Assembly (NCBI GenBank): GCA_031396245.1
Contig: JANNKK010000013.1
Span: 1 to 60,769 of the forward strand
Length of the DNA stretch: 60,769 nt
Direction of reading: 5' to 3'
From: Gemmatimonadaceae bacterium
GTDB taxonomy: Bacteria; Gemmatimonadota; Gemmatimonadetes; Gemmatimonadales; Gemmatimonadaceae
Shown here: one piece after another, positions 3 to 48,223 of the stretch
How positions within the stretch are numbered: the first letter of the stretch is position 1
Layout of the letters: every line of letters starts with the position of its first letter
Made by a program: the position numbers and the translations under genes
The notes under the pieces: model-generated
What the model saw: the letters and a program-made list of their open reading frames with translations, nothing else
Database searches by the model: none
Told to the model about the DNA's origin: nothing

Positions 3-1340
3 GCGATCGGCGTCGATGCCTCAGTGCAGCGGCGGGTGGTGCACAGCGACTCGATCGGCCGCTACGTGGTCGCCGTTTCGCCCCTTCCCGGCGGACGACG
101 CGCGTTGGTCGTCGTTTGCACGCAGAACTGTGCGGAGTCTGACCTACGCGTCGTCGATCTTCGATCGGGAGTGCTCCGCGTCCTGTCGACCGAAGTGGTG
201 AGGGCCTGGTACCTGCCGAGTGGCGATGTGGTATTCGCTCGGAGAGATGGCGGTGTCTTCCTGGCGCCGTTCGACTTGGGCGAGCTGTCCTTCAGGACTG
301 CACCGGTCCCGGTGATGGACGGAGTGCGGACCTCGGCCAATTCCGCCGACATGACCCTTTCTCCGAGCGGCACGCTCCTCTACGTCGGTGGGGGAGCGGT
401 GAACGCAACCCAGCTCGTCGAAGCGGTCTGGGTGACACGAGAGGGCCTGGCATCGCCCGTCGACCCGACCTGGAGCTACGTGCCCTCCGGCAACTCGGGC
501 ATCGCGCTCTCGCCGGACGGACGGCGGCTCGCGGTGAGCGCCGTCACGTCGGGGAACTCCGACATCTGGGTCAAGCAACTGCCGGCGGGCCCGTTCACAC
601 GAATGACCTTCGAGGGCGTCAACACGGGCCCCGCCTGGACCGCGGACAATCGGACCGTGATGTACATGACGGCGAAGTCTGGAACGAACGACGACCTCGC
701 CGCGCGCAGTGCCGACGGCACGGGCGCGGAGGCGATCCTTCTGGACGCAACGCGCGTCGTGTCCGAGGTACAGCGCACTCGTGATACCTCACGCCTCATC
801 GTCCGCCTCTCAGTACCGCCGTCTCGCGACATCCATCTGGTCGAGCGAGCAGCCGACAGCGCAAGAACGAGTCCCCTGGTAGCGAATGACCGGTACGACG
901 AGGTCCATCCGGCGGTTTCGCCCGACGGACGGTGGCTGGCCTATGCTTCGAACGAGTCGGGACGATTCGAGGTCTACGTGCGGCCCTTCCCCGATGCGAA
1001 CAGCGGGCGGTGGCAGGTCTCCCGCAACGGTGGCAGCGAACCGATGTGGGCGCATAGCGGCCGCGAGCTCTTCTACCGCGATGGGAGCGGCGCGATGGTG
1101 GTCGCGGCGGTGAGGTCCGGCACGGCATTCGAACTCGGCGAAGAGCGGACTCTCTTTCCAGCGACTGGCCTGCTGCGGTTTACCACCCGGCGACTCTATG
1201 ACCTCACGCCCGACGACCGGCGCTTCGTCTTCATCCGCAACGTGGGTTCCCAGGCCGCGCCGAGTCCGGTGCCGGTCACGGTGATCCAAGTGGACAACTG
1301 GTTCACGGAACTCAAGGCCGCGGCAGGCCGGCGTCCTTGA
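3..1340 (+). CDS. C-terminal part (TolB/PD40-like beta-propeller) of a kinase-propeller receptor, 5' truncated by the window edge (copy 0)
   Basis: Frame is open from base 3. It has SPDG repeats, WLAYASNESGRFEVYVRPFP, WQVSRNGGSEPMW and the terminal VDNWFTEL motif shared with the full-length paralogs. The kinase domain is inferred to lie upstream of the window. Confidence 0.85.
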   Translation, partial: AIGVDASVQRRVVHSDSIGRYVVAVSPLPGGRRALVVVCTQNCAESDLRVVDLRSGVLRVLSTEVVRAWYLPSGDVVFARRDGGVFLAPFDLGELSFRTAPVPVMDGVRTSANSADMTLSPSGTLLYVGGGAVNATQLVEAVWVTREGLASPVDPTWSYVPSGNSGIALSPDGRRLAVSAVTSGNSDIWVKQLPAGPFTRMTFEGVNTGPAWTADNRTVMYMTAKSGTNDDLAARSADGTGAEAILLDATRVVSEVQRTRDTSRLIVRLSVPPSRDIHLVERAADSARTSPLVANDRYDEVHPAVSPDGRWLAYASNESGRFEVYVRPFPDANSGRWQVSRNGGSEPMWAHSGRELFYRDGSGAMVVAAVRSGTAFELGEERTLFPATGLLRFTTRRLYDLTPDDRRFVFIRNVGSQAAPSPVPVTVIQVDNWFTELKAAAGRRP

Positions 1341-1358
1341 GGGCCGCGGAGTGACGCA

Positions 1359-1889
1359 CTAGCCGCCCAGCAGTTCCTCCAACGCGAGCCGCGTCTTGAG
1401 CGGGATCCTGGCGTCGTCGAAGTACTGCGTCACGATCTCGATGGCCGCCGCCGTCGTCGTGATGTTGAGGTAGCGCAGCAGGAAGCGGACGTCGTCGAGA
1501 TCGTGGAACTCCGCGCCCAATCGCATCGCCGCGCACTTCATCGCCAGCAGATACGTGGGCTGTGCGACGAACACCTGGAGATGTGACCGCTCCAGGAATC
1601 GATCGTACGTCCCGCGCGGACTGAGCCAGGACTTCACGGCGTCGTTCAGCCAGTCATCTGGTACGCCGGCTCGCGCTGCGACGCGGGCCGCCGCCTCGCG
1701 CACGAGCGTTGCCGGCTTGAACGACGCGTCCACGTCACGCGTGGCTGCGCGGGCGCCGAGGGCAAGGCACATCACCGCGCCGCCGACGAGGTAGACCTCG
1801 GCGTGGGTGTCGGAGGCGGCGAGCTCCTCGTTGAGCAAATCGAAGAGACTCAGGATGTCAACCTTCGTCAGCCGGACCGGTTCGGGCAT
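1359..1889 (-). CDS. Pol-beta-superfamily nucleotidyltransferase (DUF6036/AbiEii-like), putative toxin, 176 aa
   Basis: YLVGGAVM...RAATRDVD NTase motif, LLAMK...DLDDV C-terminal motif; lies 2 bp downstream of an RHH gene. Confidence 0.75.
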   Translation of the reverse strand: MPEPVRLTKVDILSLFDLLNEELAASDTHAEVYLVGGAVMCLALGARAATRDVDASFKPATLVREAAARVAARAGVPDDWLNDAVKSWLSPRGTYDRFLERSHLQVFVAQPTYLLAMKCAAMRLGAEFHDLDDVRFLLRYLNITTTAAAIEIVTQYFDDARIPLKTRLALEELLGG

Positions 1890-1891
1890 GC

Positions 1892-2383
1892 TCAGACCCG
1901 CTCTCCGACACTGGCGTCAACGAAGATGTTGCGACGCTTGAAGGACACCGGCGCCGACCGCAGAAGGTGAAGCCGCAGGCTCTTCAGCGGCGTGACGAAG
2001 TGCGGCGCGTCGAGCGGGAGGACGGCGCTGACCCAGCGCGGCGGCTCGACCTGCTTCGCTTCCGCGGCCTGCTCGACCATCGCCGCGACGTAGTTCTGCA
2101 GGTAGGGCGACAGCGCGCCGAGGTCGGCGGCGCCGACCGTCTCAGCGAAGGCGATCGAGGGACAGGCGTGCAGCAAGTCGTTCAGTTCGGCCAGGGCGAA
2201 GCGCGGATCGGTGTCCGCCCGCAGGGTTCGGAGGAGATCGGCGAAGCGATCCGGTCCCGCAGGCACGAGCCGGGAGAGGACGTAGCGCGAGACGTCGCAT
2301 CCCGCCGCGCGCGCGAGGCGCTTGAGCGCCGCCTTCTGCTGCGGGGTCACGCGGATCTGGAGTTGCTGCGTCTTGGCGGGCAT
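1892..2383 (-). CDS. Ribbon-helix-helix DNA-binding protein with C-terminal extension, putative antitoxin, 163 aa
   Basis: Start revised to ATG 2383. MPAKTQQLQIRVTPQQKAALKRLARAAGCDVSRYVL fits the RHH strand-helix-helix pattern; C-terminal FKRRNIFV. Confidence 0.7.
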   Translation of the reverse strand: MPAKTQQLQIRVTPQQKAALKRLARAAGCDVSRYVLSRLVPAGPDRFADLLRTLRADTDPRFALAELNDLLHACPSIAFAETVGAADLGALSPYLQNYVAAMVEQAAEAKQVEPPRWVSAVLPLDAPHFVTPLKSLRLHLLRSAPVSFKRRNIFVDASVGERV

Positions 2384-2433: not shown

Positions 2434-2520
2434 GCGCGGTGTCGGAGGGAGAGCGAGGCCGGGGGCCCCGGCGCGGCGTTCGACAGCGGGCCACGGGAGC
2501 CGTATCTTGGCCGCAGCCAA

Positions 2521-5159
2521 ATGACTGCGAATTCCGAACGTCTCTCGGCGGCCCTCGCCGACCGCTACCGCATCGAGCGTGAGCTCGGCCAGGGCGGGAT
2601 GGCGACCGTCTACCTCGCCCAGGACTTGAAGCACGACCGTCAGGTCGCGATCAAGGTCCTCAAGCCCGAACTCGCCGCCGTCCTCGGCGCCGAGCGATTC
2701 GTGGTCGAGATCAAGACCACCGCCGCGCTGCAGCATCCACACATCCTCCCGCGCTTCGACAGCGGGAGCGCCGATGGCTTCCTCTTCTATGTGATGCCGT
2801 ACGTGGAAGGGGAGACCCTTCGCGACAAGCTCAACCGCGAGACGCAATTCGGGGTGGACGAAGCGGTGCGGATCGCCTGCGAGGTGGCCGATGCGCTCGA
2901 CTACGCGCATCGGCGCGGCGTGATCCATCGCGACATCAAGCCGGAGAACATCCTCCTGCACGATGGCCGGCCGATGGTCGCCGACTTCGGTATCGCGCTC
3001 GCGCTCTCGGCTGCTGCCGGTGGTCGGATGACGGAGACCGGGCTGAGTCTCGGTACGCCGCACTACATGAGTCCTGAACAGGCGACGGCTGAGAAGGAGA
3101 TCACCGGCCGCTCTGACGTCTACAGTCTGGCGTCTGTCCTCTATGAGATGCTCGCCGGTCAGCCGCCTCACCTCGGCGGGAGCGCGCAGCAGATCATCAT
3201 GAAGATCATCGCCGAGCCGGTGGCGGCGGTGACGCAGTTCCGGAAGGCGGTGCCGCCGAACGTCGCGGCGGCCGTGGCGAAGGCGCTCGAGAAGCTCCCG
3301 GCCGACCGGTTCGCGACGGCGAGTGAGTTCGCCGGGGCGCTCAAGATGGCGTCGTTCACACTCGAGGCGCGGGCGGGCGCCGAGACGATCGCGATGAAGA
3401 CGTCCCGCCTCAAGGAGCGCGCCGCCATCCCGTTGGTGGCGGGGCTCATCCTCGCCGTGATCGCCGCGGCGTGGGGCTGGACGCGTCCGGCGCCCGACGC
3501 ACCCGTCGTGCGCTTCCCGATCACGATGCCCGACAGTGCGGAACTCATCCGCCAGCCGGGCATCCTTCTCGCCCTCTCGGCCGATGGGTCACGGCTCGTC
3601 TACATCGGCCCGGGCGATGGGGATGTCGACATCTGGGAGCGGCCACTGAACTCCCTCGTCGGGACGCGCGTGCCGGAGACGAATGGTGCCGACTCCCCCT
3701 TCCTCTCGACGGCCGGTGACGTCGTCGCGTTCTATCGGCAGAATCCGCCGCGGCTCTTCACCGCCTCGCTGCGCGGCGGACCACGGCAGACCTGGGTCCA
3801 GGACTCGACCGTCTCCGCGGGGGGAGATTTCGGCCCCGACGGGGCGATCTACTTCACGCGCGTCGGTGGGATCCGGCGCGTGCGCGAGCCGGGCGGACCG
3901 GTCGAGCAGGTGACGAGCGTCGACTCCGCCCAGGGTGAACAGGGGCACAGCTGGGTCGACGTGTTGCCGAACGGGAAGGGTGCGCTCTTCACGATCGTGC
4001 GCTCGACCGAGGACCAATACGACATCGCCGCGGTCGACCTCCGGACAAATGGGGTCAAGGTCCTGGTGCGCGGGACCTACGCGCGATATTCGCCGAGCGG
4101 TCACATCGTGTACTCGGACGCGAGCGGCGGCCTGTTCGCCCTCTCCTTCGATGCGAAGGCGCTCGCGACCCGTGGCGCACCGATCCCGCTCGTCTCCGGC
4201 GTGAGTCGGGGTGAAGGTGGCGTCGCACACTTCACCCTCTCTGAGACGGGGGTGATGATGTACGCGACGGGAGGAGGCGGAGGTTCCGAGGAGCTGGTCT
4301 GGGTCGATCGCCAGGGCGGCACAGCGCCGACCGACTCGACCTTGCGCGGTCCGTTCTACGAGATCGCGCTCTCGCCGAACGGTCGTCGGATCGCGATGTC
4401 CTCGCCCGACGCGGCGCTCGGGAACATCTGGATCAAGGACCTGCCGAATGGCCCCCTCCAGAAACTCACGCTCGAGGGCGACAACTTCACGCCCTCCTGG
4501 TCGCCCGATGGGCGCACCGTCTACTTCATCTCGGTGCGCTCCGGATCCTCTTGGGCGCTGTATGGTCGACGCGTGGATGAGGGCGCGAATCCCTTCCCAG
4601 TGACTCCTCATGTGCAGGGGATGCGCAGCGCGTCGGTCTCTCCGGATGGATCGTGGGTCGTGTATACCGTCACCCAGGACATCTTCGCCCGGCGGACCAA
4701 GGGAGACACGGCGACGGTCAGGCTCGTGGCGACTCCGGCCGCCGAAGTCGCGCCGACGCTCTCGCCGGACGGGCGCTGGCTTGCGTATGTCTCGCTCGAG
4801 TCGGGTGTCCCCGAGGTCTACGTGAGTCCGTTCCCCGACGTGGCGAGCGGCCGGACGGTCGTCTCGATCGACGGAGGGACCGAGCCGCACTGGGCGCCGA
4901 ACGGCCGTGAGCTCTTCTTCTCCGGACCGGGACTGCGCTTCATCGCGGCACAGGTCGAGCTGACGCCGACCTTCCGCGTGCGCGAGCGCAGGGTGCTCTT
5001 CGACCGGTCGGGCTTCCTTCGCGTGGTCCAGAGCGGTGCCGCGTACGATGTCGCACCGGGCGGACAGCGGTTCGTGATGTATCGGTCGCGGACCCTCCGC
5101 AGCGACAAGTTCGTGCTCGTGCAGAACTGGCCGGCCGAGCTCGCCGGGCGGCCGATCCG

Positions 5160-5163
<4 letters not shown>
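2521..5163 (+). CDS. Ser/Thr protein kinase - TM - beta-propeller receptor (copy 1), 880 aa
   Basis: GQGGMATV, VAIK, HRDIKPEN, DFG, GTPHYMSPEQ; hydrophobic segment IPLVAGLILAVIAAAWGW; SPDG/SPNG repeats. Confidence 0.93.
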
Positions 5164-7858
<2,695 letters not shown>

Positions 7859-7862
<4 letters not shown>

Positions 7863-10507
7863 GCGGCGTCCCCGAGCGGCTCTCCGCAGCGCTCGCTGAT
7901 CGCTACCGGATCGAGCGCGAACTCGGCGCCGGCGGGATGGCGACGGTGTACCTCGCGGCCGACCTCAAGCACGACCGCAGGGTCGCGCTGAAGGTGCTGA
8001 AGCCCGAGCTCGCCGCGGTGCTCGGCGCCGAACGCTTCGTGGTCGAGATCAAGACTACGGCGTCGCTCAGCCATCCGCACATCCTCCCGCTCTTCGATTC
8101 GGGGACTGCGGAAGGATTCCTCTACTACGTGATGCCCTTCATCGAAGGGGAGACCCTCCGCGACAAGCTGAATCGCGAGACGCAGTTCGGCGTCGAGGAA
8201 GCGGTGAAGATCGCGAGCGAGGTCGCCGACGCGCTCGACTACGCGCATCGACACGGTGTGATCCATCGCGACATCAAGCCGGAGAACATCCTGCTGCACG
8301 ATGGGCGACCGATGGTCGCCGACTTCGGGATCGCGCTCGCGGTCTCGGCCGCGGCTGGTGGTCGCATGACCGAAACGGGTCTGAGCCTGGGGACTCCGCA
8401 CTACATGTCGCCCGAGCAGGCGACGGCGGAGAAGGAGATCACGGCGCGCAGCGACGTGTACTCGCTCGCGAGCGTGCTCTTCGAGATGCTCGCCGGACAA
8501 CCGCCGCATCTCGGTGGTTCGGCGCAGCAGATCATCATGAAGATCATCGCCGAGCCGGTGCCGGAGGTGACGCAGTTCCGGCGGTCGGTGCCGCAAAACG
8601 TGGCGGCGGCAGTGGCGAAAGGATTGGAGAAGCTGCCGGCCGATCGGTTCGAGAGTGCGAGCGCTTTCGCGCGGGCGCTGAATGATCCGTCATTCCACAC
8701 GGCCGCAGATGGCGGAACGGGAGTCGGCGCCGCACGGCAGGCGCTGAGCCGGCGGTCACTCGGCCTCGCCGCCGTCGGCGGACTCGTCATCCTTGCCGCG
8801 GCGTACTTCACTGGTCGCGCCAGCGCGCCAGGCCCCGTGGTGCGGGATGTAGGCCTCCCCGACACCGCGCAACTCGCCTTCGCCGACGACGGCCCATTCA
8901 GCATCGAATGGCCGAGTCTCGCCGTCTCGCCGGACGGCGACTTCATGGTGTACGTCGCTCGCGTGAGTTCGGGGACTGAGCTCTGGTACCGGAGCCTGCG
9001 CGGAGCCGAGGCGCGGCCACTGCCTGGAACGCGCGGAGGGCTCATCCCGACGCTCTCGCCCGATGGACGGTCGGTCGCGTTCCAGGCAGGCCGTCTACTG
9101 AAGAAGGTGAACGTGGATGGGAGCGCCACCGCGGTCGACGTCGCGGAGATCGTCGAGCCCTACGGGATGGTGTGGACGGGTGCCGATGAGGTGCTCGTCG
9201 CGACGGAGTACGGCACGCGAACCGTCCGGATCCGACTGAGTGATGGGACCAAGCGCGATCCGGGCGGCTCGTGCGGATGGCCGACGATGGTCCCCGGGAC
9301 GAACGACCTGATCTGTCACTCCGAAGGGGACAACAGGTTCGCGCGGGTGGTGACGATGTCCGCTGACGGCATCGTTCCGGAGATGCGATCCGCTGGCGCG
9401 GTGCTCGGTGACAGTGCACGTCCGATGGCGGCGTCCACGTCCACCCTGTTGGATGACCGACTGCTCTCAGTCGACGAGGTGGGGAATCTCGTCGTCGCTC
9501 GCTACGACCGCGCCCGCCGCGTGATCGGCCCGCGGACGATCGTGCGCCGTGGCCTCAGGCGATCGCAATTCGCGATCGCCGGACACTTCGGAGTCACGCG
9601 CGCTGGCGACCTCGTCTACGTCACGGGTTCGAACGGCGCGATCGGACGGTTCGTCGCGATGCAGCCGGGTGGCGCTGCGCGCGTATTGCCGGTCCCGGCC
9701 AAGGAGTACGGAAACTTCGGCGTGTCACGCGACGGGAAGTGGCTCGCCGCGACCTCGCGTGGCGTGACTGGCGATGAACTCTGGATCTATGATGCCGAGA
9801 CCGGACAGGGCGACCGCGTCGCTGCCGCTTACTATCTCGGCTATCCGACCTGGGCGCCGGACGGAACGCTTGCGTACGTCGTAGGCGCCTCGGCGACCAG
9901 CGAGCTTGAGACGATGCTTCTCCCGCCGGGCGGTGGGGCACCGGTCCGGCTCGCTGGACAGCAACTGCAGCCGAGCATGTTCGTGGACCCGGGCCTCGTG
10001 ATCGGCGGTTCGGGTAACGATATCGTGGTGGCGACGCTGGACCACGATCGCGTGGTGCACGCCGACACGCTCAAGCTCCCGAGCAATCAGTACTATCCGG
10101 TGGTCTCGCCCGACCGACGCTGGCTCGCGTACGCCGGGTCGGAGAAGGGGATCTCGCAGATCTTCGTGACGCCTTTCCCCTCGATGGCGCGCCAGTACAA
10201 GGTCTCACTGGACGCGGCGTCGGAACCGCTCTGGTTGCCCGACGGGGGTCTCGTCTACCGGAACGGAAGATGCTGGTATCGCCAGCGTCCCCGCGCCGGC
10301 GCGATGCCGCCCTTCGCGGCGCCGGCGCTCCTCTTCTGCGACGAGAAGCTGCTCAACACCTCAGGACCGTCGAACACGGTGATGCCGGACGGGAGCATCC
10401 TCTACCTCCGCACCGTCGGGCCGACGACGGCCGGCTACGTGCGGATCGTGCGTGGGTGGCAGCGGACGCTCGGCCGCCCGGCGGGCGGCGAGGGCGGGAC
10501 GCCGTGA
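7859..10507 (+). CDS. Ser/Thr protein kinase - TM - beta-propeller receptor (copy 3), 882 aa
   Basis: All Hanks motifs present; GTGA overlap; TM LGLAAVGGLVILAAAYF; divergent Cys-containing propeller. Confidence 0.93.
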
Positions 10508-15764: not shown

Positions 15765-15796
15765 GTACCGTGGGCGAGCGCCTCTCGTTCGCGCTA
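15761..15796 (+). pseudogene. 12-codon relic of the 5' end of a further kinase gene
   Basis: CTGA overlap with the copy 5 stop, then reads (L)STVGERLSFAL, compared with SAVNERLSVAL and SAITERLSAAL in intact copies. Similarity ends at the stop codon of the convergent oxidase. Confidence 0.6.
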
Positions 15797-29396: not shown

Positions 29397-29437
29397 TTGC
29401 GTGAATCGAAGCAGTATGATATAGTATTACTCGATAT
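29397..29437 (+). promoter_or_regulatory. Extended -10 promoter and AT-rich candidate operator of the second RHH-NTase operon
   Basis: TTGCGT (29397-29402), 17 nt, TATAGT (29420-29425) preceded by TG-n; short repeats AGTAT x2 and GATAT x2; ATG lies 10 nt after the -10 box. Confidence 0.6.
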
Positions 29438-30253: not shown

Positions 30254-30260
30254 CTCTCAA

Positions 30261-33135: not shown

Positions 33136-33182
33136 CGACGGCAACGTTACCGACAGCTGGCGCGGGGCGCTACATTCGCGCG

Positions 33183-38198: not shown

Positions 38199-38210
38199 CA
38201 TCTTCCCCAA

Positions 38211-40136
38211 ATGTCACGCCCAACTCTCGCCCTCGCCGCGCTCGCGCTGACGACCGCCGCCCTCGCCGCCCAGCCCCCGCGCGCTGTCCGGCGCGACATC
38301 CCGATCACGAATGCCATCCGCCGCGCGTACGCCGCTGGCACTCGCGACTCGACTGGTCGTCCGGGCCGCAACTATTGGCAGCTCCGCACCGACTACACGA
38401 TCCGCGTGCGCCTCGATCCCGCCACGCAGCGCATCACCGGAACCGAGACGATCACGCTCCGCAACGAGAGCCCCGATACGCTCCGCACGATCTCGATGCG
38501 GCTGCCGCTCAACCATTTCCTCTTCGAGTCGCCTCGTGCCGCGCCCTGGGTGCCCGCCGAGAACACTGATGGGATGCCGGTCACGCGCCTCGTCGTCGAC
38601 GGCAAGGAAGCGACGCTCACCAATCCCCGTTCGACGCTCGCGCGGATCACCCTCGCGACGCCGATCCTCCCGCGCGCCACCGCGACGATCGAACTCGACT
38701 GGAACGCGAAGTTGCCCGGCGGCCCCGGCACCGGTCACCGGATGACCCAGCGGTGGGGCGACACCCTCTTCCAGCCGACGCAGTGGTTCCCCCGCGTCGC
38801 GATGTACGACGACCTTCGCGGGTGGGACACCGAGCTCTACCTCGGCCCCTCCGAGTTCTACAACGAGTTCGGGCGCTACGACGTGCGGATCACCGCACCC
38901 GGCGGCTGGATCGTGAGTGGCACCGGCGTCCTCCAGAATCCCGAGGAGGTGCTCACCCCGCGAGCGCGCGAGCAGCTCTCGCACGTGCTCGAGTCCGATG
39001 CGAACACGACGATCGTCGGGCTGGACGAAGTGGGGCCCGGCAACGCGACTGCCGCCGGGAGAGAACTCACCTGGCACTTCGCCGCCGACAACGTGAACGA
39101 CTTCGCCTGGGCCACCGCGAAGAAGTTCGTCTGGCTCGCGACCCGCGCGACGATCCCCACCAAGGGGCCGGTGCCGGTCCACATGGTGCATCTCCCCGGT
39201 CGCGCTGCGCAGTTCGCGAACGCCGGACAGTACGCGCGTCACGCGCTCGAGTTCTACTCCAAGCTCTGGTTCCCCTATCCCTTCCCGCAGCTCACGCTGC
39301 AGGATGGGCCGAGCTCGGGAATGGAGTACCCGATGGTGATCAACTCCAATCAGGGTGCGGCCGACCACGAGACGGGACACCAGTGGTGGCCGATGACGGT
39401 CTCGAACAACGAAACGTGGTACGGCTGGATGGACGAGGGGTTCGACCAGTACATGAACATCCTCTCCGATGCCGACGCGGCGGGCCAGGCGCCGCGGCTC
39501 GACGGACTCGGTCAGTCGTACGGGCGCAATGCCGGCAACGAGAGTGAGCCGCCGATGATGTGGAACGCGAACTACGCGGGCCCGAGCTCCTACGGATTCA
39601 CGACGTATGCCAAGACACCCCTGATGCTCTCGATGCTCGGCGGGATCGTCGGCGACAGCGCGGTGCAGCGCGCGCATCGGGAGTTCGGCGTGGCCTGGAT
39701 GTGGAAGCATCCCTCGCCCTGGGATTGGATGTTCTTCATGAACCGCGCACTCGGGCACGACCTCGGCTGGTTCTGGAACGCGTGGCTCTTCGGGACGGAG
39801 TCGGTGGAGGCCTCGATCACCGGGATGCGCGCCGTCGGGCCTCGCACCTTCGTGAACGTGCGGCAGAGCGGGCAGATGCCCTCGCCGGTCGTGCTGCAGG
39901 TGAAGCTCGCGGCGAGCGGAAACACGATCCGCCCGATGCGGAACGCCGTGATGACCGACAGCCTCACCGCGATCGTGACCTGGCCGGTGGACGTCTGGTT
40001 CGGCGGGAACCGCACCTTCGAGGCGGTGCTCGACTTCGGCGGCCGCGCGGTGGAGTCGGTGCTGTTCGATCCGGGTCAGCGATTCCCCGACCGCAACCCG
40101 GCCGACAACGCCTGGCCGCGGCCGCAGAGTCGCTAA
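38211..40136 (+). CDS. Exported M1-family zinc metallopeptidase, 641 aa
   Basis: Signal peptide; GMEYP, HETGHQW (HExxH), WMDEG, YAK. Confidence 0.88.
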   Translation: MSRPTLALAALALTTAALAAQPPRAVRRDIPITNAIRRAYAAGTRDSTGRPGRNYWQLRTDYTIRVRLDPATQRITGTETITLRNESPDTLRTISMRLPLNHFLFESPRAAPWVPAENTDGMPVTRLVVDGKEATLTNPRSTLARITLATPILPRATATIELDWNAKLPGGPGTGHRMTQRWGDTLFQPTQWFPRVAMYDDLRGWDTELYLGPSEFYNEFGRYDVRITAPGGWIVSGTGVLQNPEEVLTPRAREQLSHVLESDANTTIVGLDEVGPGNATAAGRELTWHFAADNVNDFAWATAKKFVWLATRATIPTKGPVPVHMVHLPGRAAQFANAGQYARHALEFYSKLWFPYPFPQLTLQDGPSSGMEYPMVINSNQGAADHETGHQWWPMTVSNNETWYGWMDEGFDQYMNILSDADAAGQAPRLDGLGQSYGRNAGNESEPPMMWNANYAGPSSYGFTTYAKTPLMLSMLGGIVGDSAVQRAHREFGVAWMWKHPSPWDWMFFMNRALGHDLGWFWNAWLFGTESVEASITGMRAVGPRTFVNVRQSGQMPSPVVLQVKLAASGNTIRPMRNAVMTDSLTAIVTWPVDVWFGGNRTFEAVLDFGGRAVESVLFDPGQRFPDRNPADNAWPRPQSR

Positions 40137-40164
40137 GGACGTCGCTCAATCGTAGGTTCTCCCG

Positions 40165-42840
40165 GTGACTCACCCCCGGGAACGCCTCGTAGCAGCCCTC
40201 GCCGACCGCTACCGCATCGAGCGCGAACTCGGTGCCGGCGGGATGGCGACCGTGTATCTCGCGCACGACGTGAAGCACGACCGCAAGGTCGCGCTCAAGG
40301 TCCTGCGACCCGAACTCTCCGCGATCCTCGGCGCGGAGCGCTTCCTCGCCGAGATCAAGACCACCGCCAATCTCCAGCACCCGCACATCCTCGGCCTCTT
40401 CGACTCGGGCGAAGCAGACGGCAACGTCTTCTACGTGATGCCGTACGTCGAGGGAGAATCACTCCGCGATCGGCTCAAGCGGGACCATCAGTTGCCGGTG
40501 GAGGAGGCGCTGCGGATCGCGCGCGAGGTGGCGGACGCGCTCGAGTACGCGCACCAGCACGGTATCGTCCACCGCGACATCAAGCCCGAGAACATCCTGC
40601 TGCACGGCGGCCACGCCGTCGTCGCCGACTTCGGAATCGCGCTAGCGGCCAGCCGCAGCGAGGGTGGCTCGCGGATGACCGAGACGGGGATGTCGCTCGG
40701 CACGCCGCACTACATGAGTCCCGAGCAGGCGATGGGGGAGCGCGAGATCACCCCCAAGACCGACATCTACGCGCTCGGGTGCGTGCTGTACGAGATGCTG
40801 ACCGCTGAGCCGCCGTTCACCGGAGCGAATGCACAGGCGATCATCGGGCGAGTGCTGACGGAGGAGCCGCGATCGCTCACCGCGCAGCGGCGAACGATTC
40901 CGCCGAATGTCGAAGCGGCGGTGCTGACGGCGATGGCGAAGCTGCCGGCGGACCGGTTCGCGAGTGCGAAGGAGTTCGCCGAGGCACTCGGGAAGAGTGA
41001 CTTCGCGCTGCCGACATCGGCGACGCGCGTGGGCTCGGCCCGAGGGGAGTCGAGCCCGCGGGAAGCGAGAACGTGGCGCCAGCAGGTCGCGCGTGCAGCC
41101 CCGTGGGTGATTGCCCTGGCCGCGATCGCGCTCTTCGCACTGGATCGGTCGCGACCTCCCGCGAAGGTGCCGCCGATCGGGCGCTTCTCGTTGAGTCTGC
41201 AGCCGGAGGTGATCACGGGGCAAGCCTGGCAGGCGATGGCGCTCTCCCCGGACGGGTCACGGCTCGTCTTCGTCGGCGCGACTGCGGGTGGCCCGAGACT
41301 CTTCACGCGACTGCTCGACGCGGTCGAAGCCGTCCCGATCCCCGGGACCGAGAATGGCATCAGCCCGTTCTTCTCGGCGGATGGGCAGAACATCGCCTTC
41401 GTCGCAGCGAACAAGCTGATGAAGGTCGCGGTGGCGGGCGGGCCTGCGCTGGCGATCTGCGATGTGCCGACGCCCTTCTACGGCGGGACGTGGAGTGAGC
41501 AGGGCGCGATCCTCTTCGCCGACGATCGCGGACTCCACGTCGTTCCGGCGGCGGGCGGTCAACCATCCCTCGTCGCGGCACCCGACTCAGGATCACGAAT
41601 TACGTATCGCTGGCCGGAGTTCCTCCCTGGCGGCCGAGCGGCGATCTTCGCAACACTCGACAGCGGCGTGGACCGACTCGCATCGATCACGATGGCGACG
41701 CAAAAGGTCCGAAGGTACGACGTACTGGGCGGGAACCCTCACTATGTCGAGCGGGGTCACATCACGCTCTCGCTCATCGGGTTGGTGGGCTCCGCCGGTG
41801 TCGTGACCGCCGGTACACTGATGTCGGTGCCCTTCGACGCGCGGCGACTCGAGTTGCTCGGGGATGCGGCGCCGATCGCGGGAAACGTGCAGATGGGCCC
41901 CGCGAGCCGAGCCGGCAAGCTCGCAGTCTCGCGGAGCGGGACGATCGCCTATGCGAGCGGGGCGGCCAACTTCTTCTCGCTCGTCGAGATCACGAGGGAC
42001 GGGACCAGACGCGATGCTGGCGCGCCCGAGCGCTACTACGGGACGCTGCGTCTCTCCCCCGACGGGCGGCGGATCGCGCTGTCGGTGACCGAGGCGGGGG
42101 CCACCGACAGCTGGGTCTTCGACCGGACGGCGAAGACGCTCACCCGCGTGACGTTCGATGGCAACGGCAGCCGTCCGATCTGGACACACGACGGCCGTCG
42201 CATCGCCTACTCCCGTGCGGGCGACTCGCAGGACCTCGCGTGGATCCCGTCGGACGGGAGCGCCGCAGCTGAGGCGCTGGTGGGCGGTCCCGACGACCAG
42301 TTCGCCGGCGACTTCACGCCCGACGGTCGTTCCCTCGTGATCCGCGACGGGGGCCAGTCGTCCCGACGCACCATCGCCCTGGTCTCGCTCGACTCGGCGC
42401 GGACCAAGCGCACCTTGGTCGAGAGTGGCTTCCAGAACCACTCGCCGACGCTCTCTCCCGATGGTCGCTGGTTGGCGTACGTCAGCGACGAGACCGGCCG
42501 CACGGAGGTGTACGTGCGTCCGATGCCGGGACCGGGGGGCAAGTGGCAGATCTCGAAGAATGGTGGCTTCGAGCCGCGCTGGTCGGCGAGCGGCGGCGAG
42601 ATCTTCTTCCGGAACGGTGAGTCGATGATGACCGCGAGCGTGAAGGCGGGGTCGACCTTCGCACCCGGTGCGGTTCGTGAACTCTTCAAGGTGAACGCCG
42701 TCTTCGGCCCGAACTTCCCCTCGTACGACGTCACGCGCGACGGCCGGACCTTCCTGATGCTCCTGCCGCCCGCGCGAAGTGGACAGGAGGTGATCATGCT
42801 GCTCAACTGGTTCGACAACCAGCCGACGAGACCGCGGTGA
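40165..42840 (+). CDS. Ser/Thr protein kinase - TM - beta-propeller receptor (copy 8, second kinase subtype), 891 aa
   Basis: Hanks motifs; subtype marks LRPEL and FLAEIKTTANLQ; TM PWVIALAAIALFAL; TAGGTT-N6-GTG upstream. Confidence 0.93.
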   Translation: MTHPRERLVAALADRYRIERELGAGGMATVYLAHDVKHDRKVALKVLRPELSAILGAERFLAEIKTTANLQHPHILGLFDSGEADGNVFYVMPYVEGESLRDRLKRDHQLPVEEALRIAREVADALEYAHQHGIVHRDIKPENILLHGGHAVVADFGIALAASRSEGGSRMTETGMSLGTPHYMSPEQAMGEREITPKTDIYALGCVLYEMLTAEPPFTGANAQAIIGRVLTEEPRSLTAQRRTIPPNVEAAVLTAMAKLPADRFASAKEFAEALGKSDFALPTSATRVGSARGESSPREARTWRQQVARAAPWVIALAAIALFALDRSRPPAKVPPIGRFSLSLQPEVITGQAWQAMALSPDGSRLVFVGATAGGPRLFTRLLDAVEAVPIPGTENGISPFFSADGQNIAFVAANKLMKVAVAGGPALAICDVPTPFYGGTWSEQGAILFADDRGLHVVPAAGGQPSLVAAPDSGSRITYRWPEFLPGGRAAIFATLDSGVDRLASITMATQKVRRYDVLGGNPHYVERGHITLSLIGLVGSAGVVTAGTLMSVPFDARRLELLGDAAPIAGNVQMGPASRAGKLAVSRSGTIAYASGAANFFSLVEITRDGTRRDAGAPERYYGTLRLSPDGRRIALSVTEAGATDSWVFDRTAKTLTRVTFDGNGSRPIWTHDGRRIAYSRAGDSQDLAWIPSDGSAAAEALVGGPDDQFAGDFTPDGRSLVIRDGGQSSRRTIALVSLDSARTKRTLVESGFQNHSPTLSPDGRWLAYVSDETGRTEVYVRPMPGPGGKWQISKNGGFEPRWSASGGEIFFRNGESMMTASVKAGSTFAPGAVRELFKVNAVFGPNFPSYDVTRDGRTFLMLLPPARSGQEVIMLLNWFDNQPTRPR

Positions 42841-45515
42841 GCGAGATCGCGGAACGCCTCGTCGCTGCCCTCGCCGACCGCTATCGCATCGAACGCGAGC
42901 TCGGTGCGGGCGGGATGGCGACTGTCTATCTCGCTCATGACTTGAAACACGATCGCAAGGTCGCGCTCAAGGTGCTGCGCCCCGAGCTCGCCGCGGTGAT
43001 CGGCGCCGAGCGGTTCTTGAGCGAGATCAAGACCACGGCGAACCTGCAGCATCCGCACATCCTCCCGCTCTTCGATTCGGGGAGCGCGGACTCGTTCCTC
43101 TACTACGTGATGCCGTACGTCGAGGGCGAGACGCTGCGCGGCAAGCTCCAGCGCGAACGGCAGCTCGGCGTCGACGAGTCGGTCCGCCTGATCCGCGACG
43201 TGGCCGACGCGCTCGACTACGCGCATCGACACGGCGTGATCCACCGCGACATCAAGCCCGAGAACATCCTCGTGCACGATGGGCGGCCGGTGGTGGCGGA
43301 CTTCGGCATCGCGCTCGCGGTGAGCGCGGCGGGGAAGGGGCGGATGACCGAGACGGGCCTCTCGCTCGGCACTCCGCACTACATGAGCCCCGAGCAGGCG
43401 ACGGCCGATCGCGATCTCTCGGCACGGAGCGACATCTACAGTCTCGCCTGCGTGCTCTACGAGATGCTCGCCGGCGACCCGCCGCACACCGGGCCGTCGC
43501 CGCAGGCGATCCTGATGCGGATCCTCACCGACACGCCGCGGCTGGTGAGTGAGACGCGCTCCACCGTGCCACCGCACGTGGTGGCGGCGCTCGCGAAGGC
43601 GCTCGAGAAGCTCCCTGCCGACCGCTTCGAGAGCGCGAAGGCCTTCGGCGAGGCGCTCGTCACGGAAGGCTTCACCTACAGCACGCGCGCGACGATGCGT
43701 GGCGTGCAGCCGGTCGCGCTCCCGCCAGCCGCGAGCGGTTCGAGGGGCGGGCGACGCGCGGCGATCGCCGGCTGGTCGGTGGCAGTGTTCGCCATCGTGG
43801 CGGCCGCGTACGGATGGACGCGTCCAACGCCGACGCTGCCGCTGACGCGGCTGGACCTCTCGACCGGCGCGGTCACCCCGGCCGACGGGTCCGACGTCGC
43901 CGTGTCCCCCAACGGGAAGATGATCGCCTTTGGAGGGACACTCGGCACCGAGCAGGCGATCTTCCTGCGCCACCTCGACGGCGAGGCCGATTTCCGAAAG
44001 GTCCCCGGCACCGAGACTGGGATGTACCCGGCCTTCTCGCCCGACAACCAGTGGATCGTCTTTCGGCGCGTGAGCGACCGGTCGCTCGTGAAGGTCTCCG
44101 TCTCAGGCGGAGGTGTGACGACGATCGTTCCCGCCGGAGCGATCGATCCCTACATGCCCCACTGGGGCACGGCGAACGAAATCGTCTTCAGCGGACCGAC
44201 GGGCCTGCATCGCGTCGCCGCTTCCGGTGGCGCCCCTGTTCCATTGCCGAAGGTCGGAGGGACGACGCCCTTCCTGCTGCCCGATGGCTCCGGCGTGCTC
44301 AGCGGCCAGGGCAACAACCTGTCGCTCTACGACTTCGCCTCCGACTCGGCGTACCTCCTCGTCCCGAATGCGCGCCACGCGGTCTACGTCGAGACAGGAC
44401 ATCTGCTCTACATCGCCGAGGACGCCGGTCTCTTCGCTGTGACGGCCGACATCGGCAAGCGTCGCGTCAGCGGCGCGCCCGTCCGGGTGCTCGACCGGGT
44501 CGCGGCCGCGCCACTCGCCCGTGGGTATTCGCTGTCGCGGAACGGCGTGCTCGTCCACCACGAAGGGGTGGGGACCGGAGGGATCATCGGCGGGACCAAT
44601 CGACTCCTGATCATCGATCCTGCGGGCGGCACCGACACGCTGCGGCTTCCGGCGGCGCGTCGACAGCAGCCACGCTTCTCGCCCGATGGGCGCTCGGTCG
44701 CCTTCGAGACCTTCTCGACGGTCCGCAATGGAGAGACCGACCTCTTCACGTTCGATCTGGTCAGCGGCACACACACGCAGATCACGTTCGATGGCGACAA
44801 CGACCGCCCGATCTGGTCCCCGGACGGGAAGCAGATCCTCTTCAACAAGAGCGTGACGGGGTCCGGCGAGGACCTCTTCGTCAAGCCGGCCGACAACAGC
44901 GGTCCGGAAAGGGCGCTGCTGACGCAGCCCGCGAACCAACAGCCCTCAGCCTGGCTCCAGGACGGGACGATCACTTTCTTCTCCGGGACCGGCGGCAGCA
45001 GCGACCTTTTCACGATGTCGGTCGCGGACAGTGGGAAGGCGAAGGCCTACCTCACGGCGCCGTGGAATGAGATCGACCTTCAGGTGTCATCGGACGGGAA
45101 GCTCGCTGCGTTCGCCGCGTCCGAGTCTGGCGGCGAGGAGATCTGGATCCGCGACTTCCCGGTGCCGCAGGGGAAGTGGAAGGTTTCGCCGCACGGAGGA
45201 ACCGCGCCGCGCTGGGCCCCGGACGGACGCGCCGTCTACTTCTGGCGAGCGGGCGTTCCGCTGGACTCGCTCTTCCGGGCGCGGATCGACAGGTCCCCGA
45301 ACGTCATCGTGCACGCACCCGAAGTGGTGGCGACGCTCGACGCGAGCGGGATCCAGAACTGGGACCTGCATCCGGACGGGAAGCGGTTCATCGTCGCTGT
45401 GACGGAGGGGGCCGCCCCAGCGTCCGCCACCGGTGCGGCCGCGCCCGTCACCGACCGGTACCTCGTCATCCAGAACTGGTTCAGCGAGCTCAAGCGGCTG
45501 GCGCCGAAGCCTTGA
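42837..45515 (+). CDS. Ser/Thr protein kinase - TM - beta-propeller receptor (copy 9, second kinase subtype), 892 aa
   Basis: GTGA overlap; LRPEL and FLSEIKTTANLQ; TM AIAGWSVAVFAIVAAAYGW. Confidence 0.93.
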   Translation: MSEIAERLVAALADRYRIERELGAGGMATVYLAHDLKHDRKVALKVLRPELAAVIGAERFLSEIKTTANLQHPHILPLFDSGSADSFLYYVMPYVEGETLRGKLQRERQLGVDESVRLIRDVADALDYAHRHGVIHRDIKPENILVHDGRPVVADFGIALAVSAAGKGRMTETGLSLGTPHYMSPEQATADRDLSARSDIYSLACVLYEMLAGDPPHTGPSPQAILMRILTDTPRLVSETRSTVPPHVVAALAKALEKLPADRFESAKAFGEALVTEGFTYSTRATMRGVQPVALPPAASGSRGGRRAAIAGWSVAVFAIVAAAYGWTRPTPTLPLTRLDLSTGAVTPADGSDVAVSPNGKMIAFGGTLGTEQAIFLRHLDGEADFRKVPGTETGMYPAFSPDNQWIVFRRVSDRSLVKVSVSGGGVTTIVPAGAIDPYMPHWGTANEIVFSGPTGLHRVAASGGAPVPLPKVGGTTPFLLPDGSGVLSGQGNNLSLYDFASDSAYLLVPNARHAVYVETGHLLYIAEDAGLFAVTADIGKRRVSGAPVRVLDRVAAAPLARGYSLSRNGVLVHHEGVGTGGIIGGTNRLLIIDPAGGTDTLRLPAARRQQPRFSPDGRSVAFETFSTVRNGETDLFTFDLVSGTHTQITFDGDNDRPIWSPDGKQILFNKSVTGSGEDLFVKPADNSGPERALLTQPANQQPSAWLQDGTITFFSGTGGSSDLFTMSVADSGKAKAYLTAPWNEIDLQVSSDGKLAAFAASESGGEEIWIRDFPVPQGKWKVSPHGGTAPRWAPDGRAVYFWRAGVPLDSLFRARIDRSPNVIVHAPEVVATLDASGIQNWDLHPDGKRFIVAVTEGAAPASATGAAAPVTDRYLVIQNWFSELKRLAPKP

Positions 45516-48223
45516 GCGCGATCACCGAACGGCTCTCGACCGCGCTCGCCGACCGCTACCGCATCGAGCGACATCTCGGTGCCGGCGGCATGGCGACCGT
45601 CTACCTCGCCGAGGACCTGAAGCACAAGCGCAAGGTCGCGGTCAAGGTCCTGAAGCCGGAACTCGCGGCGGTGCTCGGCGCCGAGCGGTTCGTGCAGGAG
45701 ATCACGACGACAGCGTCGCTCTCGCATCCGCACATCTTACCCCTGTTCGATTCGGGCACCGCGGACGGGTTCCTCGTCTACGTCATGCCCTTCATCGAGG
45801 GTGAGTCGCTCCGCGACAAGCTGAACCGCGAGACGCAGCTCGGCGTGGACGAGGCGGTGAAGATCGCGACCGAAGTGGCGGACGCCCTGGACTACGCGCA
45901 CCGCCACGGCGTGATCCACCGGGACATCAAACCGGAGAACATCCTCCTGCACGATGGCCGCCCGATGGTCGCCGACTTCGGTATCGCCCTGGCCGTCTCG
46001 GCCGCGGCGGGTGGTCGGATGACAGAAACGGGCCTAAGTCTCGGGACGCCGCACTATATGTCGCCCGAGCAGGCGACCGCCGAGAAGGAGATCACGGCGC
46101 GGTCCGACGTGTACTCGCTCGCGTCAGTGCTCTACGAGATGCTGGCTGGCGAGCCACCGCACAGTGGGGGCTCGGCGCAGGCGATCATCATGAAGATCAT
46201 CGCCGAGCCGGCGCAGATGGTGACGAAACTCCGGAAGTCGGTGCCGCCGAACGTCGCGAGCGCTCTGGCAAAGGCGCTTGAGAAAGTGCCGGCGGATCGC
46301 TTCGCGAGTGCGAAGGACTTCGCGGACGCGCTCGCGAACCGGGCCTTCCGGATCGAGGTGACTCCAGCGCACGCGGGCGCGATCCTTGGCGGAACGGGGG
46401 TGGTCTCTCGCGGCGCGTTCGCGGGAGTGGCCATCGTCGCACTGTTCGCCATCGCGGCGGCGGCCTGGGGATGGATGCGTCCGCCCCCTGTGACTGCCCC
46501 GGCTCGGTATCAGCTGTCATTGTTCGATCGGGGATCCGGCGCGGGTCCGGACTTTCGAAGCGTCGCGCTGTCACCGGACGGCCGTTCCATCGCGTTCGCG
46601 CAAGTCAGCGGAGGTGAGCCAATGGTGTGGCTCAAGACGACCGAGCGGGCGACCGCGGAGCCGCTGGCCGGAACGGGGGGTGGCCGGTCGCCGACATTCT
46701 CGACCGATGGCGAGTGGATCGCCTTCGTCGCCGGTGGCCGCGTACGGAAAGTTCGCCGCAGTGGTGGTGACGTCCTGACGATCGCCGATGGCGCACCCTC
46801 GGGGAATGCCCAGCTCGCCTGGCTCGACGACGGGACCGTGCTGTTCAGCGGACCGCAGTCCGGGCTGATGGCCGTGAATGAAGATGGCGGTCCGGTGCGG
46901 ACGGTGATCCCGCGAGACTCGCTTCCCAACAACGTCTTTGACATCGCTGCCGTGCCCGGAAGTCGCACCGCACTGCTCGTCACCTGCGCCTCCAACTGCG
47001 TAGAAGCCCAACTCTGGGCGGTCGACCTCGCCACGGGGAGGCGCGAAGACCTTGGATCACGCGCTCACAGAGTCTGGCACCTGGATGGCGGCGTCGTCGT
47101 CCTCGCCGACCAGCGGGCCGGGAGCGTCCTCGCCGCACTGTTCGACGAACGACGCCTGGCCTTCCGCGCGCCGCCGACCCCCGTCCTCGAAGGCGTCCAG
47201 CGAGCCGGGGGTGAGAATATCGCGGTCGCTGTGTCGGATAACGGGACCTTGCTCTTCGCACCAGCTCGCGAGTCGGGTCGTGCCCACGCCGTCTGGATCA
47301 GCAGGGACGGAACGGTCGCGTCGGTGGACTCCGCGTGGTCCTTCGCGAATGCTCGCGGAGCGGCGCTCTCTCCCGACGGCAATCGTCTGGCCATCGCCAT
47401 CTCCTCCGGGGATGCGAGCGACCTCTGGCTCCGGGACCTCGTCCCAAATGGCGGCGTGACCCGGCTGACGTTCGACGGGAGGGCGCGGATCCCTCAATGG
47501 TCAGCCGACGGCGCGTCGGTATTCTACGTCGAAGTGCCGGCCAAGTTCGGCGGTGGGTTCGAGGTCAAGCGACGTCGGATCGACGGGTCGGATTCGGCGC
47601 AGACGGTGCTGCGGAGCGTGCGCGACATCTCCGAGTTCGTGCTGCTGCGCGACACCACGCGACTCCTGGTGCGGTACGGGGCGCCGCCGACGCGGGACAT
47701 CTATCTCGCGCGCCGCGCCGGCGATGCCGCCGCCGATTCCTTCGTGCCGCTCCTCGCCAGCGACCGGAGCGAGGAAGTCGCGATCAGCCTTTCTCCTGAC
47801 GGGAAGTGGCTGGCGTACGCGTCCACTGAGTCAGAGCGCTGGGAGGTGTACGTCGTGCCTTTCCCGGCCGTGACCACCGGTCGATGGCAAGTCTCACTCG
47901 AGGGCGGCCGATCCCCGCGCTGGGCCCGGAGCGGCCGGGAGCTCTTCTTCCGTGACCTGAACGATGGACTCCTCGCCGTGCCGGTGACGTTCACGACGAG
48001 CCCGGTGTTCGGGCCTCGCCGACGGCTCTTCCGACTTGAGGGCCTCGCCCTCGCGCCGCACTCGACCAGTCCGATGCTGGTGCAGTTCGACGTGAGTCCC
48101 GACGATCGCCGATTCCTGTTCATGTCCGCGTTGGACCGGGAGCAGGAGTCGGCCAGTGCCGGCGCGGTGCTCGTGCAGAACTGGCTCGCCGAGGTCAAAC
48201 AGCGGATGAAGGGGACGCGATGA
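45512..48223 (+). CDS. Ser/Thr protein kinase - TM - beta-propeller receptor (copy 10), 903 aa
   Basis: Start revised from 45176 to TTG 45512 (TTGA overlap; SAITERLSTALADRY). Hanks motifs intact. Confidence 0.92.
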   Translation: MSAITERLSTALADRYRIERHLGAGGMATVYLAEDLKHKRKVAVKVLKPELAAVLGAERFVQEITTTASLSHPHILPLFDSGTADGFLVYVMPFIEGESLRDKLNRETQLGVDEAVKIATEVADALDYAHRHGVIHRDIKPENILLHDGRPMVADFGIALAVSAAAGGRMTETGLSLGTPHYMSPEQATAEKEITARSDVYSLASVLYEMLAGEPPHSGGSAQAIIMKIIAEPAQMVTKLRKSVPPNVASALAKALEKVPADRFASAKDFADALANRAFRIEVTPAHAGAILGGTGVVSRGAFAGVAIVALFAIAAAAWGWMRPPPVTAPARYQLSLFDRGSGAGPDFRSVALSPDGRSIAFAQVSGGEPMVWLKTTERATAEPLAGTGGGRSPTFSTDGEWIAFVAGGRVRKVRRSGGDVLTIADGAPSGNAQLAWLDDGTVLFSGPQSGLMAVNEDGGPVRTVIPRDSLPNNVFDIAAVPGSRTALLVTCASNCVEAQLWAVDLATGRREDLGSRAHRVWHLDGGVVVLADQRAGSVLAALFDERRLAFRAPPTPVLEGVQRAGGENIAVAVSDNGTLLFAPARESGRAHAVWISRDGTVASVDSAWSFANARGAALSPDGNRLAIAISSGDASDLWLRDLVPNGGVTRLTFDGRARIPQWSADGASVFYVEVPAKFGGGFEVKRRRIDGSDSAQTVLRSVRDISEFVLLRDTTRLLVRYGAPPTRDIYLARRAGDAAADSFVPLLASDRSEEVAISLSPDGKWLAYASTESERWEVYVVPFPAVTTGRWQVSLEGGRSPRWARSGRELFFRDLNDGLLAVPVTFTTSPVFGPRRRLFRLEGLALAPHSTSPMLVQFDVSPDDRRFLFMSALDREQESASAGAVLVQNWLAEVKQRMKGTR

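Follow-up and report, generated by a model that had tools for sequence, protein, structure and literature searches.

How does a bacterium come to hold, on one stretch of DNA, a row of receptor-like kinase genes with similar signalling halves and very different sensor halves, and what would such a row do for it? We examined this question in a stretch of 60,769 nucleotides (nt) from a Gemmatimonadaceae bacterium (assembly GCA_031396245.1). This stretch, called the window here, is all of contig C16 of the genome that we label G000 (2.68 Mb, 76% complete, 68% GC); related genomes, contigs and loci carry G, C and L numbers. The kinase gene array occupies positions 3 to 48,223. It is probably an accessory library of receptor kinases with a predicted inner-membrane location. 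Old, distinct double-propeller domains, likely sensors, are joined there to similar kinases, and recombination in the kinase DNA likely re-pairs, adds and removes sensors.

Gene array and protein architecture

An earlier note, made from the sequence alone, had described ten complete genes and one partial gene of one architecture. This was confirmed: the ten complete genes and one 5'-cut gene lie on the forward strand and sum to 27,915 nt. K1 is the partial copy and K2 to K11 are the whole copies. The genes and their promoter-like sequences, all on the forward strand, are as follows (G031 is a relative with an orthologous array).

3..1340, forward: K1, 5'-cut copy at the contig edge, propeller only, with a PD40 match; an orthologue with 81% nt identity lies at the same array end in G031
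2480..2508, forward: sigma-70-like promoter match, 12 nt 5' of the K2 start; weak alone (2 in 20 kb vs 1.1 in shuffles)
2521..5163, forward: K2, kinase, transmembrane (TM) helix and double propeller; ectodomain modelled
5160..7862, forward: K3, start overlapping the K2 stop
7859..10507, forward: K4, ectodomain type occurring on different kinase clades
10504..13101, forward: K5; in its G031 orthologue the ectodomain is 85% and the kinase just 88% identical
13098..15764, forward: K6; vs G031, synonymous divergence (dS) is 0.22 in the ectodomain and 0.70 in the kinase
19095..19100, forward: -10-like hexamer, 6 nt 5' of the start of K7
19107..21725, forward: K7
24124..24129 and 40153..40158, forward: -10-like hexamers before K8 and K9
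24136..26766, forward: K8, G031 orthologue at a second locus
40165..42840, forward: K9, kinase from a different clade, 95% identical to that of a C111 copy with a differing ectodomain
42837..45515, forward: K10, type present on at least two kinase clades
45512..48223, forward: K11, TTG start; G031 has another ectodomain at that position

In each encoded protein a Hanks kinase is followed by a predicted membrane helix and then by two TolB-like propellers of six blades each. Pkinase (residues 16-270, over the cut-off) and PD40 were matched in 10/10 whole genes, and all ten are open reading frames (ORFs). A single hydrophobic 19-mer (Kyte-Doolittle value 1.66-2.24) begins at residues 301-308 in every whole copy, and the hydropathy peak spans residues 301-326. 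Hydropathy thus predicts one TM helix between kinase and C-terminal ectodomain in 10/10; the charge bias is weak. The ectodomains are likely periplasmic sensors. The array is split into several blocks by unrelated cargo genes. K3-K6, K10 and K11 start within the preceding stop codons. At K7, K8 and K9 the -10-like hexamer lies 6 nt 5' of the start, which would suit a leaderless-type promoter; it is found at 11/103 family starts against a background of 0.46%. The 103 whole proteins used here and in the trees were taken from stretches around the top kinase matches in 18 genomes and are a biased set, not full inventories; a partial C111 copy and 28 kinase ORFs with other or cut C-termini were left out. 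Four further family copies are found elsewhere in G000, on C103, C111 (two) and C293. The kinase profile finds 38 kinase ORFs in this incomplete genome, 14 of which belong to the family.

Similar kinases and old, distinct ectodomains

The first 275 or so residues had been called almost invariant. The kinases are indeed highly similar, but identity among the eight core copies (K2-K8 and K11) is 81-90% (mean 86), and it is 66-90% among all ten. The activation segment quoted in the earlier note is exact in 6/8 core copies; K2 has one change, and the change in K6 is probably a consensus error. K45, E63, HRD, DFG, T171, T173 and the P+1 residues are invariant in 103/103 family proteins, as is an N-lobe patch of Y16, H38, R40, D80 and G82. 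The closest solved kinase by PDB sequence match is PknB. PknB residue 33, which we take to be a dimer-interface leucine, aligns to the invariant His38. Direct repeats of at least 40 nt fall into 44 families; the 20 listed are all kinase, and the kinase repeats share about 75-86% nt identity. Kinase dN/dS (dN, nonsynonymous divergence) is 0.03-0.14 in orthologue pairs with G031. Between paralogous kinases dS is 0.50-0.67 (4 pairs) and four-fold sites are 56% identical; true orthologues between species of the genus show 47-56%.

The ectodomains present a different picture. Each propeller half is 16-39% identical (mean 28) between window copies, and four-fold sites between window ectodomains are 39-41% identical, where saturation predicts 41%. 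No type is shared by any two of the 14 G000 ectodomains tested. Clustering of 185 distinct ectodomains, named loci included, gave 96 types at 46% identity, of which 60 are singletons (Chao1 about 214). The K3 ectodomain has a match at E<=1e-40 in 15/30 relatives and above 50% identity in 1/30, and all 76 K2-matching loci from named genomes belong to Gemmatimonadota or orders within it. In orthologous pairs ectodomain dN/dS is 0.24-0.45 (8 pairs) and 0.11-0.29 (9 G031 pairs), and cargo genes give 0.08-0.22 (13 genes vs G031; two carboxypeptidase-regulatory-like genes that match the same single G031 gene as a third are left out). These are whole-domain values, with which a few selected sites remain compatible. 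By these sequence comparisons the ectodomains are old, distinct types with orthologues in other genomes and are under purifying selection.

The K2 ectodomain was folded with a 100-sequence alignment (pLDDT 93.6, pTM 0.85) and was used in place of a K3 single-sequence fold (pLDDT 35.6). For residues 264-539 the structure matches are six-bladed propellers of the TolB type (2ojh, Z 27.2, root-mean-square deviation 2.6, 252 aligned). Structure matches to the full-length ectodomain are tandem-propeller receptors such as LRP6, at poor root-mean-square deviation. Blades were assigned by the usual convention from the secondary-structure string, without coordinates. The expectation that variable sites would cluster on one propeller face held: between types, identity is 0.17 and 0.20 in top-face loops, 0.51 in a-b turns and 0.23-0.28 in strands, and the standard deviation of loop length is 1.6-1.9 at the top face against 0.1-0.6. 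Top-face variability is common to propellers in general. Mean loop-length difference is 0.2-0.3 residues within types (48 pairs) and 1.5-1.8 between types (800 of 4876 pairs sampled), a pattern in the model that fits fixed, type-specific binding faces. The proposed quick, local diversification of the propellers was therefore rejected: no type is shared within the genome, synonymous sites are saturated, dN/dS is 0.11-0.45 and loop lengths are steady within types. The ectodomain is a portable input module, because it is also joined to other outputs: 97 of the 150 best ectodomain cluster representatives carry kinase sequence, and 8 non-kinase representatives scanned include five with Trans_reg_C (winged helix-turn-helix, wHTH) and one with an N-terminal BTAD domain.

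These data bear on an immune-like or kin-recognition repertoire, whose sensor surfaces would be under diversifying selection exerted by proteins of phages, predators or competitors. We rate it as rather improbable. The very large pool of types, their patchy presence, the top-face variability, the toxin-antitoxin (TA) and nuclease-like neighbours described below, and ectodomain dS of 0.22-1.16, which suggests horizontal traffic, all favour it. It is opposed by whole-domain dN/dS near that of cargo genes and by loop lengths that are fixed within types. PADLOC matches cover the kinase domain only and were read as generic, cargo is mostly secreted hydrolases, and no reverse transcriptase was found in the four genomes searched.

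Exchange of kinases between ectodomains

The nearest neighbour lies in the same genome for 34/98 kinases and 5/98 ectodomains (random, 10.6). Among 52 cross-genome pairs of ectodomain orthologues, 38 have a non-orthologous paralogue in the same genome with a closer kinase. Genome labels change 63 times on the kinase tree vs 73.3 when shuffled (0/200 shuffles as low), and 74 times on the ectodomain tree vs 73.2 (135/200); cross-genome groups are well supported in the latter. The approximately unbiased (AU) test rejects a single kinase clade for 4/9 ectodomain types (K10, 2e-6; X103, 3e-52; K7, 2e-4; K4, 3e-73), with p-values that are optimistic because the groups were named after both trees were known. 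Part of the AU tests used the 103 rows; those for the remaining five types and two more types used a 32-row subset. Kinase-ectodomain linkage stands at percentile 0.87 at the TM helix, 0.80 at the kinase end and 0.60 at the N-terminus (not monotonic, non-independent pairs). A pairwise homoplasy index (PHI)-type test was positive for the G000 core (0/1000, and 14/1000 at third positions).

Single cases point the same way. K9 and the C111 copy are 95% identical in the kinase and about 30% in the ectodomain, while the C111 ectodomain is 50% identical to that of K11. Kinase dS is higher than ectodomain dS in both of the closest pairs (0.59 vs 0.34, and 0.70 vs 0.22 for K6 and its G031 orthologue). 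On this sequence evidence the recently shared or exchanged part is the kinase and not the sensor. The dS of paralogous kinases matches that of cargo orthologues to G031 (0.44-0.97), so the exchange would run on a slow, species-divergence timescale. Recent gene conversion as the main picture was rejected: there is no identical tract of 48 nt or more, and the four-fold identity of the paralogues is that of between-species orthologues.

The G031 array keeps the ectodomains of K1, K4, K5, K6, K7, K9 and K10 in order (70-96% amino acid identity; K1 81% nt), and orthologues of K3 and K8 lie at a second locus homologous to G000 C111. The K2 and K11 types were not found in G031 (best 40% and 42%; G031 completeness not stated). 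Four other ectodomains are carried in its array. A G031 kinase 93% identical to that of K11 is joined to a foreign ectodomain (32%). As the earlier note had anticipated, there is no stable one-to-one set of orthologues: 7 of 11 are in order, two are elsewhere, two were not found and four others stand in the array instead. The kinases of the K5, K7 and K8 orthologues are patchworks, with parts that are closer to other paralogues, and that of K6 is partly so. Between G000 and G031 dS is 0.37-0.71 for kinases and 0.22-1.16 for ectodomains; the latter spread suggests that the ectodomains arrived at different times. At E<=1e-70 the subfamily was not found in the near-complete G016. The G029 array (C3:305001-425000, L012-L017) also includes family kinases whose tails are TPR-like by eye and not propellers, as well as a PD40 protein that stands alone and a wHTH-TPR gene; a sigma factor-kinase pair lies at its left edge.

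One alternative is that these are ordinary old paralogues, each gene evolving as a unit without domain exchange and the kinases kept alike by purifying selection only. Low kinase dN/dS agrees with it, as do kinases that are 85-88% identical also across families, and 5/9 types are congruent or not rejected by the AU test (K9 is already a clade; K2, p=0.057; K3, K6 and K8 not rejected). Against it stand the four rejected types, the K9/C111 pair, the K11-like kinase of G031 on a 32% ectodomain and the higher kinase dS in the two closest pairs, and we consider it quite improbable. The same congruent types and cross-family identity weigh against our own reading of a library re-paired by recombination. 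Because the identity reaches another family, selection alone explains much of the kinase constancy. Further points on that side are the PHI-type test of third positions in the G029 array (663/1000, not significant), the failure to catch a recent conversion, identical tracts staying under 48 nt, and the 5/9 G031 orthologue pairs that retain the kinase at 97-98%. Exchange is therefore occasional.

A strict cassette of ectodomain, cargo and next kinase start was also tried and fits in part only. The block that the window has in common with G006 and G017 holds the TA-like pair and a kinase and not the upstream gene, and cargo order differs beyond what kinase crossovers alone explain.

Soundness of the assembly

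Misassembly had been named as a possible refutation of the array and is unlikely. Chimeric joins of kinase repeats from several organisms might be suspected, since the genome is a metagenome bin of about 10-fold depth with scattered consensus differences and independent contigs break inside each kinase compared. We regard this as barely credible. The window has no exact repeat of 48 nt or more. Contigs of run X1 link each K2-K9 ectodomain to its kinase end and the following sequence at an even depth of 7-11 on unique parts; they match long unique window stretches with 0-4 differences and break inside kinases. X1 is possibly the source sample and hence not independent, and the contig comparison stops before 44,001-48,223. 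The sides of most contig joints measure 20-36 nt, and such joints were attributed to repeats or to other organisms. The order of seven ectodomains is the same in G031, and better assemblies hold like arrays: C3 of G029 (99% complete) has 19 kinase-propeller genes, and in G033 one contig of 5.45 Mb has 14 kinase genes within 49 kb. Two or more family ORFs are contained in 30/47 named loci of at least 7.5 kb (a few perhaps split genes).

Consensus differences in the window are few; the X1 contig at 13618 contradicts the K6 activation-segment change. At residue 78 (window 2752-2754) K2 carries Arg where Leu is conserved, and K8 has three odd residues near the HRD motif (135, 141 and 145, window 24538-24570), either consensus errors or marks of an impaired kinase. 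Split or truncated family genes occur inside arrays at G020:C1:332716-335456, G010:C77:18730-19305 and G031:C89:51029-51400, either as remnants of decay or as errors of assembly. The summed contig depth in all four sediment runs on kinase parts is tens of times the ectodomain depth. This is not a copy number, because similar kinases of other organisms add up; related kinase DNA is therefore common in the community.

Toxin-antitoxin-like pairs at kinase starts

A TA-like pair lies between K1 and K2.

1359..1889, reverse: 176-residue ORF, toxin-like partner; homologues of 77-78% beside family kinases in G006 and G017, and of 83% in G031
1892..2380, reverse: antitoxin-like ORF, divergent from K2; NikA-like over the cut-off, ParD- and TacA1-like under the cut-off

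The antitoxin-like ORF has Pfam matches. The putative toxin has no Pfam, NCBIfam, PADLOC or PDB match; it presumably carries a nucleotidyltransferase-like motif, judged by eye. The pair is kept together in four genomes. In G006 and G017 it runs into the next kinase at 75% nt identity, after which different ectodomains follow. Of 100 PIN genes in 10 genomes, 10 are followed within 600 nt by a family kinase in the same orientation against 0.24 expected, under a uniform null that ignores that both gene kinds favour variable regions. Six of the ten were checked in sequence and each has a small upstream ORF that is antitoxin-like by eye, of varied type; the other four were placed by coordinates. 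Inside arrays there are PIN genes at 3/8 in G029 and 3/21 in G033. On the other side, the G000 array has 0/6, the stretches inspected in G006 and G020 have none, and any variable island tends to collect TA genes.

Cargo and other genes

The remaining genes of the array are listed below (the first two by ORF limits; the true start of the oxidase is later).

15794..18202, reverse: multicopper oxidase
17695..19125, reverse: class-V aminotransferase-like protein; also in G010, G029 and G031 arrays, at other places
21722..24055, reverse: DUF5916 protein; also in G008, G010 and G031 arrays
26772..40136, no single strand given: block of serine hydrolase, amidohydrolase, FG-GAP, FGE-sulfatase, three carboxypeptidase-regulatory-like genes and M1 peptidase; largely syntenic in G031

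Cargo in the G000, G010 and G029 arrays is mostly predicted secreted hydrolases and oxidases. In G031 the TA-like pair and the DUF5916, aminotransferase and hydrolase genes have changed position. The array could be seen mainly as a gene-capture island, with kinase repeats as landing sites, TA pairs that retain DNA and many receptors as passengers of little individual use. In its favour are the reshuffling of cargo among G000, G010 and G031, the position of TA pairs at kinase starts, the remnants of kinases in the arrays of G010 and G031 and the lack of subfamily matches in G016. Against it, 10/10 whole copies are open frames and purifying selection acts on the ectodomains as on the cargo enzymes, and we find this account distinctly improbable.

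Other observations on the cargo were as follows. The three tandem carboxypeptidase-regulatory-like genes (33908-38198) point to a local expansion because all match one G031 stretch (C89:16176-17765); an X2 contig in which 34252 is followed directly by 35587 (83-nt side) may come from a strain with one copy fewer. A 512-residue ORF (31648-33186) has no Pfam match and is 63% identical in G031; its region partly resembles a sulfatase-bearing stretch in G029. The G010 array holds two Uma2 nuclease-like genes and an AAA_14-DUF4143 gene (L020:3408-4772, L020:17506-18678), a similar-looking ATPase ORF (by eye) lies between the K6 and K7 orthologues at G031:C89:34220-35471, and AbiEii was matched at L018:13007-13819. 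Beyond the array, the window has a LytS/LytTR-type two-component pair (52491-55266), with a His-phosphatase-like gene upstream and a membrane protein without assignment downstream, and a TonB-dependent-receptor-like outer-membrane protein with a carboxypeptidase-regulatory N-terminus (56969-60037).

Proposed function

In the favoured reading, a library of receptor kinases re-paired through their kinase DNA, ligand binding at the variable top face would bring kinases together and the activation-loop threonines T171 and T173 would then be phosphorylated, as inferred from PknB and PknD. The receptors would phosphorylate a common substrate set and could cross-activate, a proposal based on the invariance of the catalytic, P+1 and N-lobe residues in every copy. 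The 0.8-kb kinase repeats would act as RecA-type exchange sites on the timescale of species divergence. TA pairs riding between them would penalise loss of array segments, in an integron-like role. The similar kinase halves would then likely have two roles, a shared signalling output and handles for recombination. The idea of a receptor repertoire feeding one output thus stands as to many sensors on a near-common kinase with a membrane-receptor layout, and not as to fast sensor diversification. The likeliest ligands, at a guess, are periplasmic peptides or polymer fragments; the guess leans to polymer or peptide sensing over immunity because cargo is mostly predicted secreted hydrolases and oxidases.

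The output side gave negative results. No substrate gene was found linked to the array. FHA proteins in G000 (6 matches in 4 ORFs) are unlinked to it. The TIGR02999 extracytoplasmic function (ECF) sigma factor is not in the window; it is over the cut-off in 10/31 genomes, several of which lack a K3-like ectodomain, and it is not found in G000, G005, G006 and G017, which have many such ectodomains. It was rejected as kinase output for this lack of co-occurrence. Like the missing substrate gene, it counts against our reading.

A bolder form of the idea would make the array the integrase-free counterpart of a superintegron for sensing. Here the kinase gene would be the recombination site, ectodomain-plus-cargo would be traded horizontally from a phylum-wide pool of hundreds of types, TA pairs would police loss, and pattern recognition of foreign proteins or polymers would lead to one phosphorylation response. 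We think this unlikely as a whole.

Gemmatimonadota are little studied, and they appear to invest heavily in signalling through this family, among others (several relatives have arrays of 11-19). The family offers a bacterial case of a receptor repertoire with many sensors and one kinase type built by domain exchange. The sensor library is defined and confidently foldable, which makes ligand screening possible, and the link between repeat-mediated array turnover and TA pairs is testable.

Comparison with known systems

Such kinase-propeller proteins are numerous in databases under generic annotation. Literature searches, with thin coverage of subscription journals, found no description of such arrays, and a search by term in a published survey of kinase architectures in prokaryotes (PMC1262709) finds neither PD40 nor TolB.

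Mycobacterium tuberculosis PknD and PknB, like the array proteins, have an N-terminal RD kinase, one TM helix and a C-terminal extracytoplasmic sensor. The PknD propeller is a single six-bladed NHL type. The array receptors differ in having two TolB/PD40-type propellers instead of one NHL propeller or PASTA repeats, and in occurring as arrays of 11 to about 20 copies with exchanged kinases; the 560-residue ectodomain models as two propellers with PD40 repeats and not as a PknD-type single one. The PknB/Stk1 family NF033483 was matched at 293-303 bits against a cut-off of 450, by the kinase part only, in 4/4 proteins scanned. One report describes the PknD sensor as a beta-propeller and dimerisation as activating PknD (PMC1847690). 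With TolB the array proteins share the fold of the C-terminal propeller (Z 25-27 to TolB-type structures), but they add a second, N-terminal propeller and are membrane-anchored behind a kinase, and they score 38-102 bits against 343 for TIGR02800.

Campylobacter jejuni Tlp2, Tlp3 and Tlp4 have identical signalling domains, sensory domains of about 30% identity, discordant domain trees and strain-variable presence (PMC9769880). They resemble the array as paralogues with a common signalling part, divergent sensors, conflicting domain trees and patchy presence. They are three genes with a chemoreceptor output, whereas the array has a Ser/Thr kinase of 81-90% identity, in tandem, with about 100 or more types. 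The Arabidopsis OAK cluster consists of tandem receptor kinases with a conserved kinase and a divergent ectodomain, gene conversion and broadly equivalent cytoplasmic domains (PMC3136440). The likeness to the array lies in the tandem receptor kinases with conserved kinase and divergent ectodomain. OAK is eukaryotic, with an N-terminal ectodomain and young hypervariable alleles, unlike the old array ectodomains under purifying selection.

Sedentary chromosomal integrons, whose TA cassettes kill cells with excess excision (PMC13108822), likewise have a variable ordered array with interspersed TA pairs. The array repeats are coding kinases of 0.8 kb and about 75-86% nt identity, not attC sites, and the genes abut or overlap. 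No integron integrase was found in the window, which starts at a contig edge, or in the arrays of four genomes including G029, G031 and G033. G000 has an over-cut-off integron integrase unlinked to the array (C18:664-1605), and three occur in G031, including one close to PIN genes on C122. Diversity-generating retroelements differ in that the variation here spans 560 residues, and the PF00078 reverse transcriptase was found in 0/4 genomes (G000 76% and G029 99% complete). As classified by these sequence comparisons, the array proteins are receptor-type Hanks Ser/Thr kinases, and not PknB, PknD, TolB, integrons or diversity-generating retroelements.

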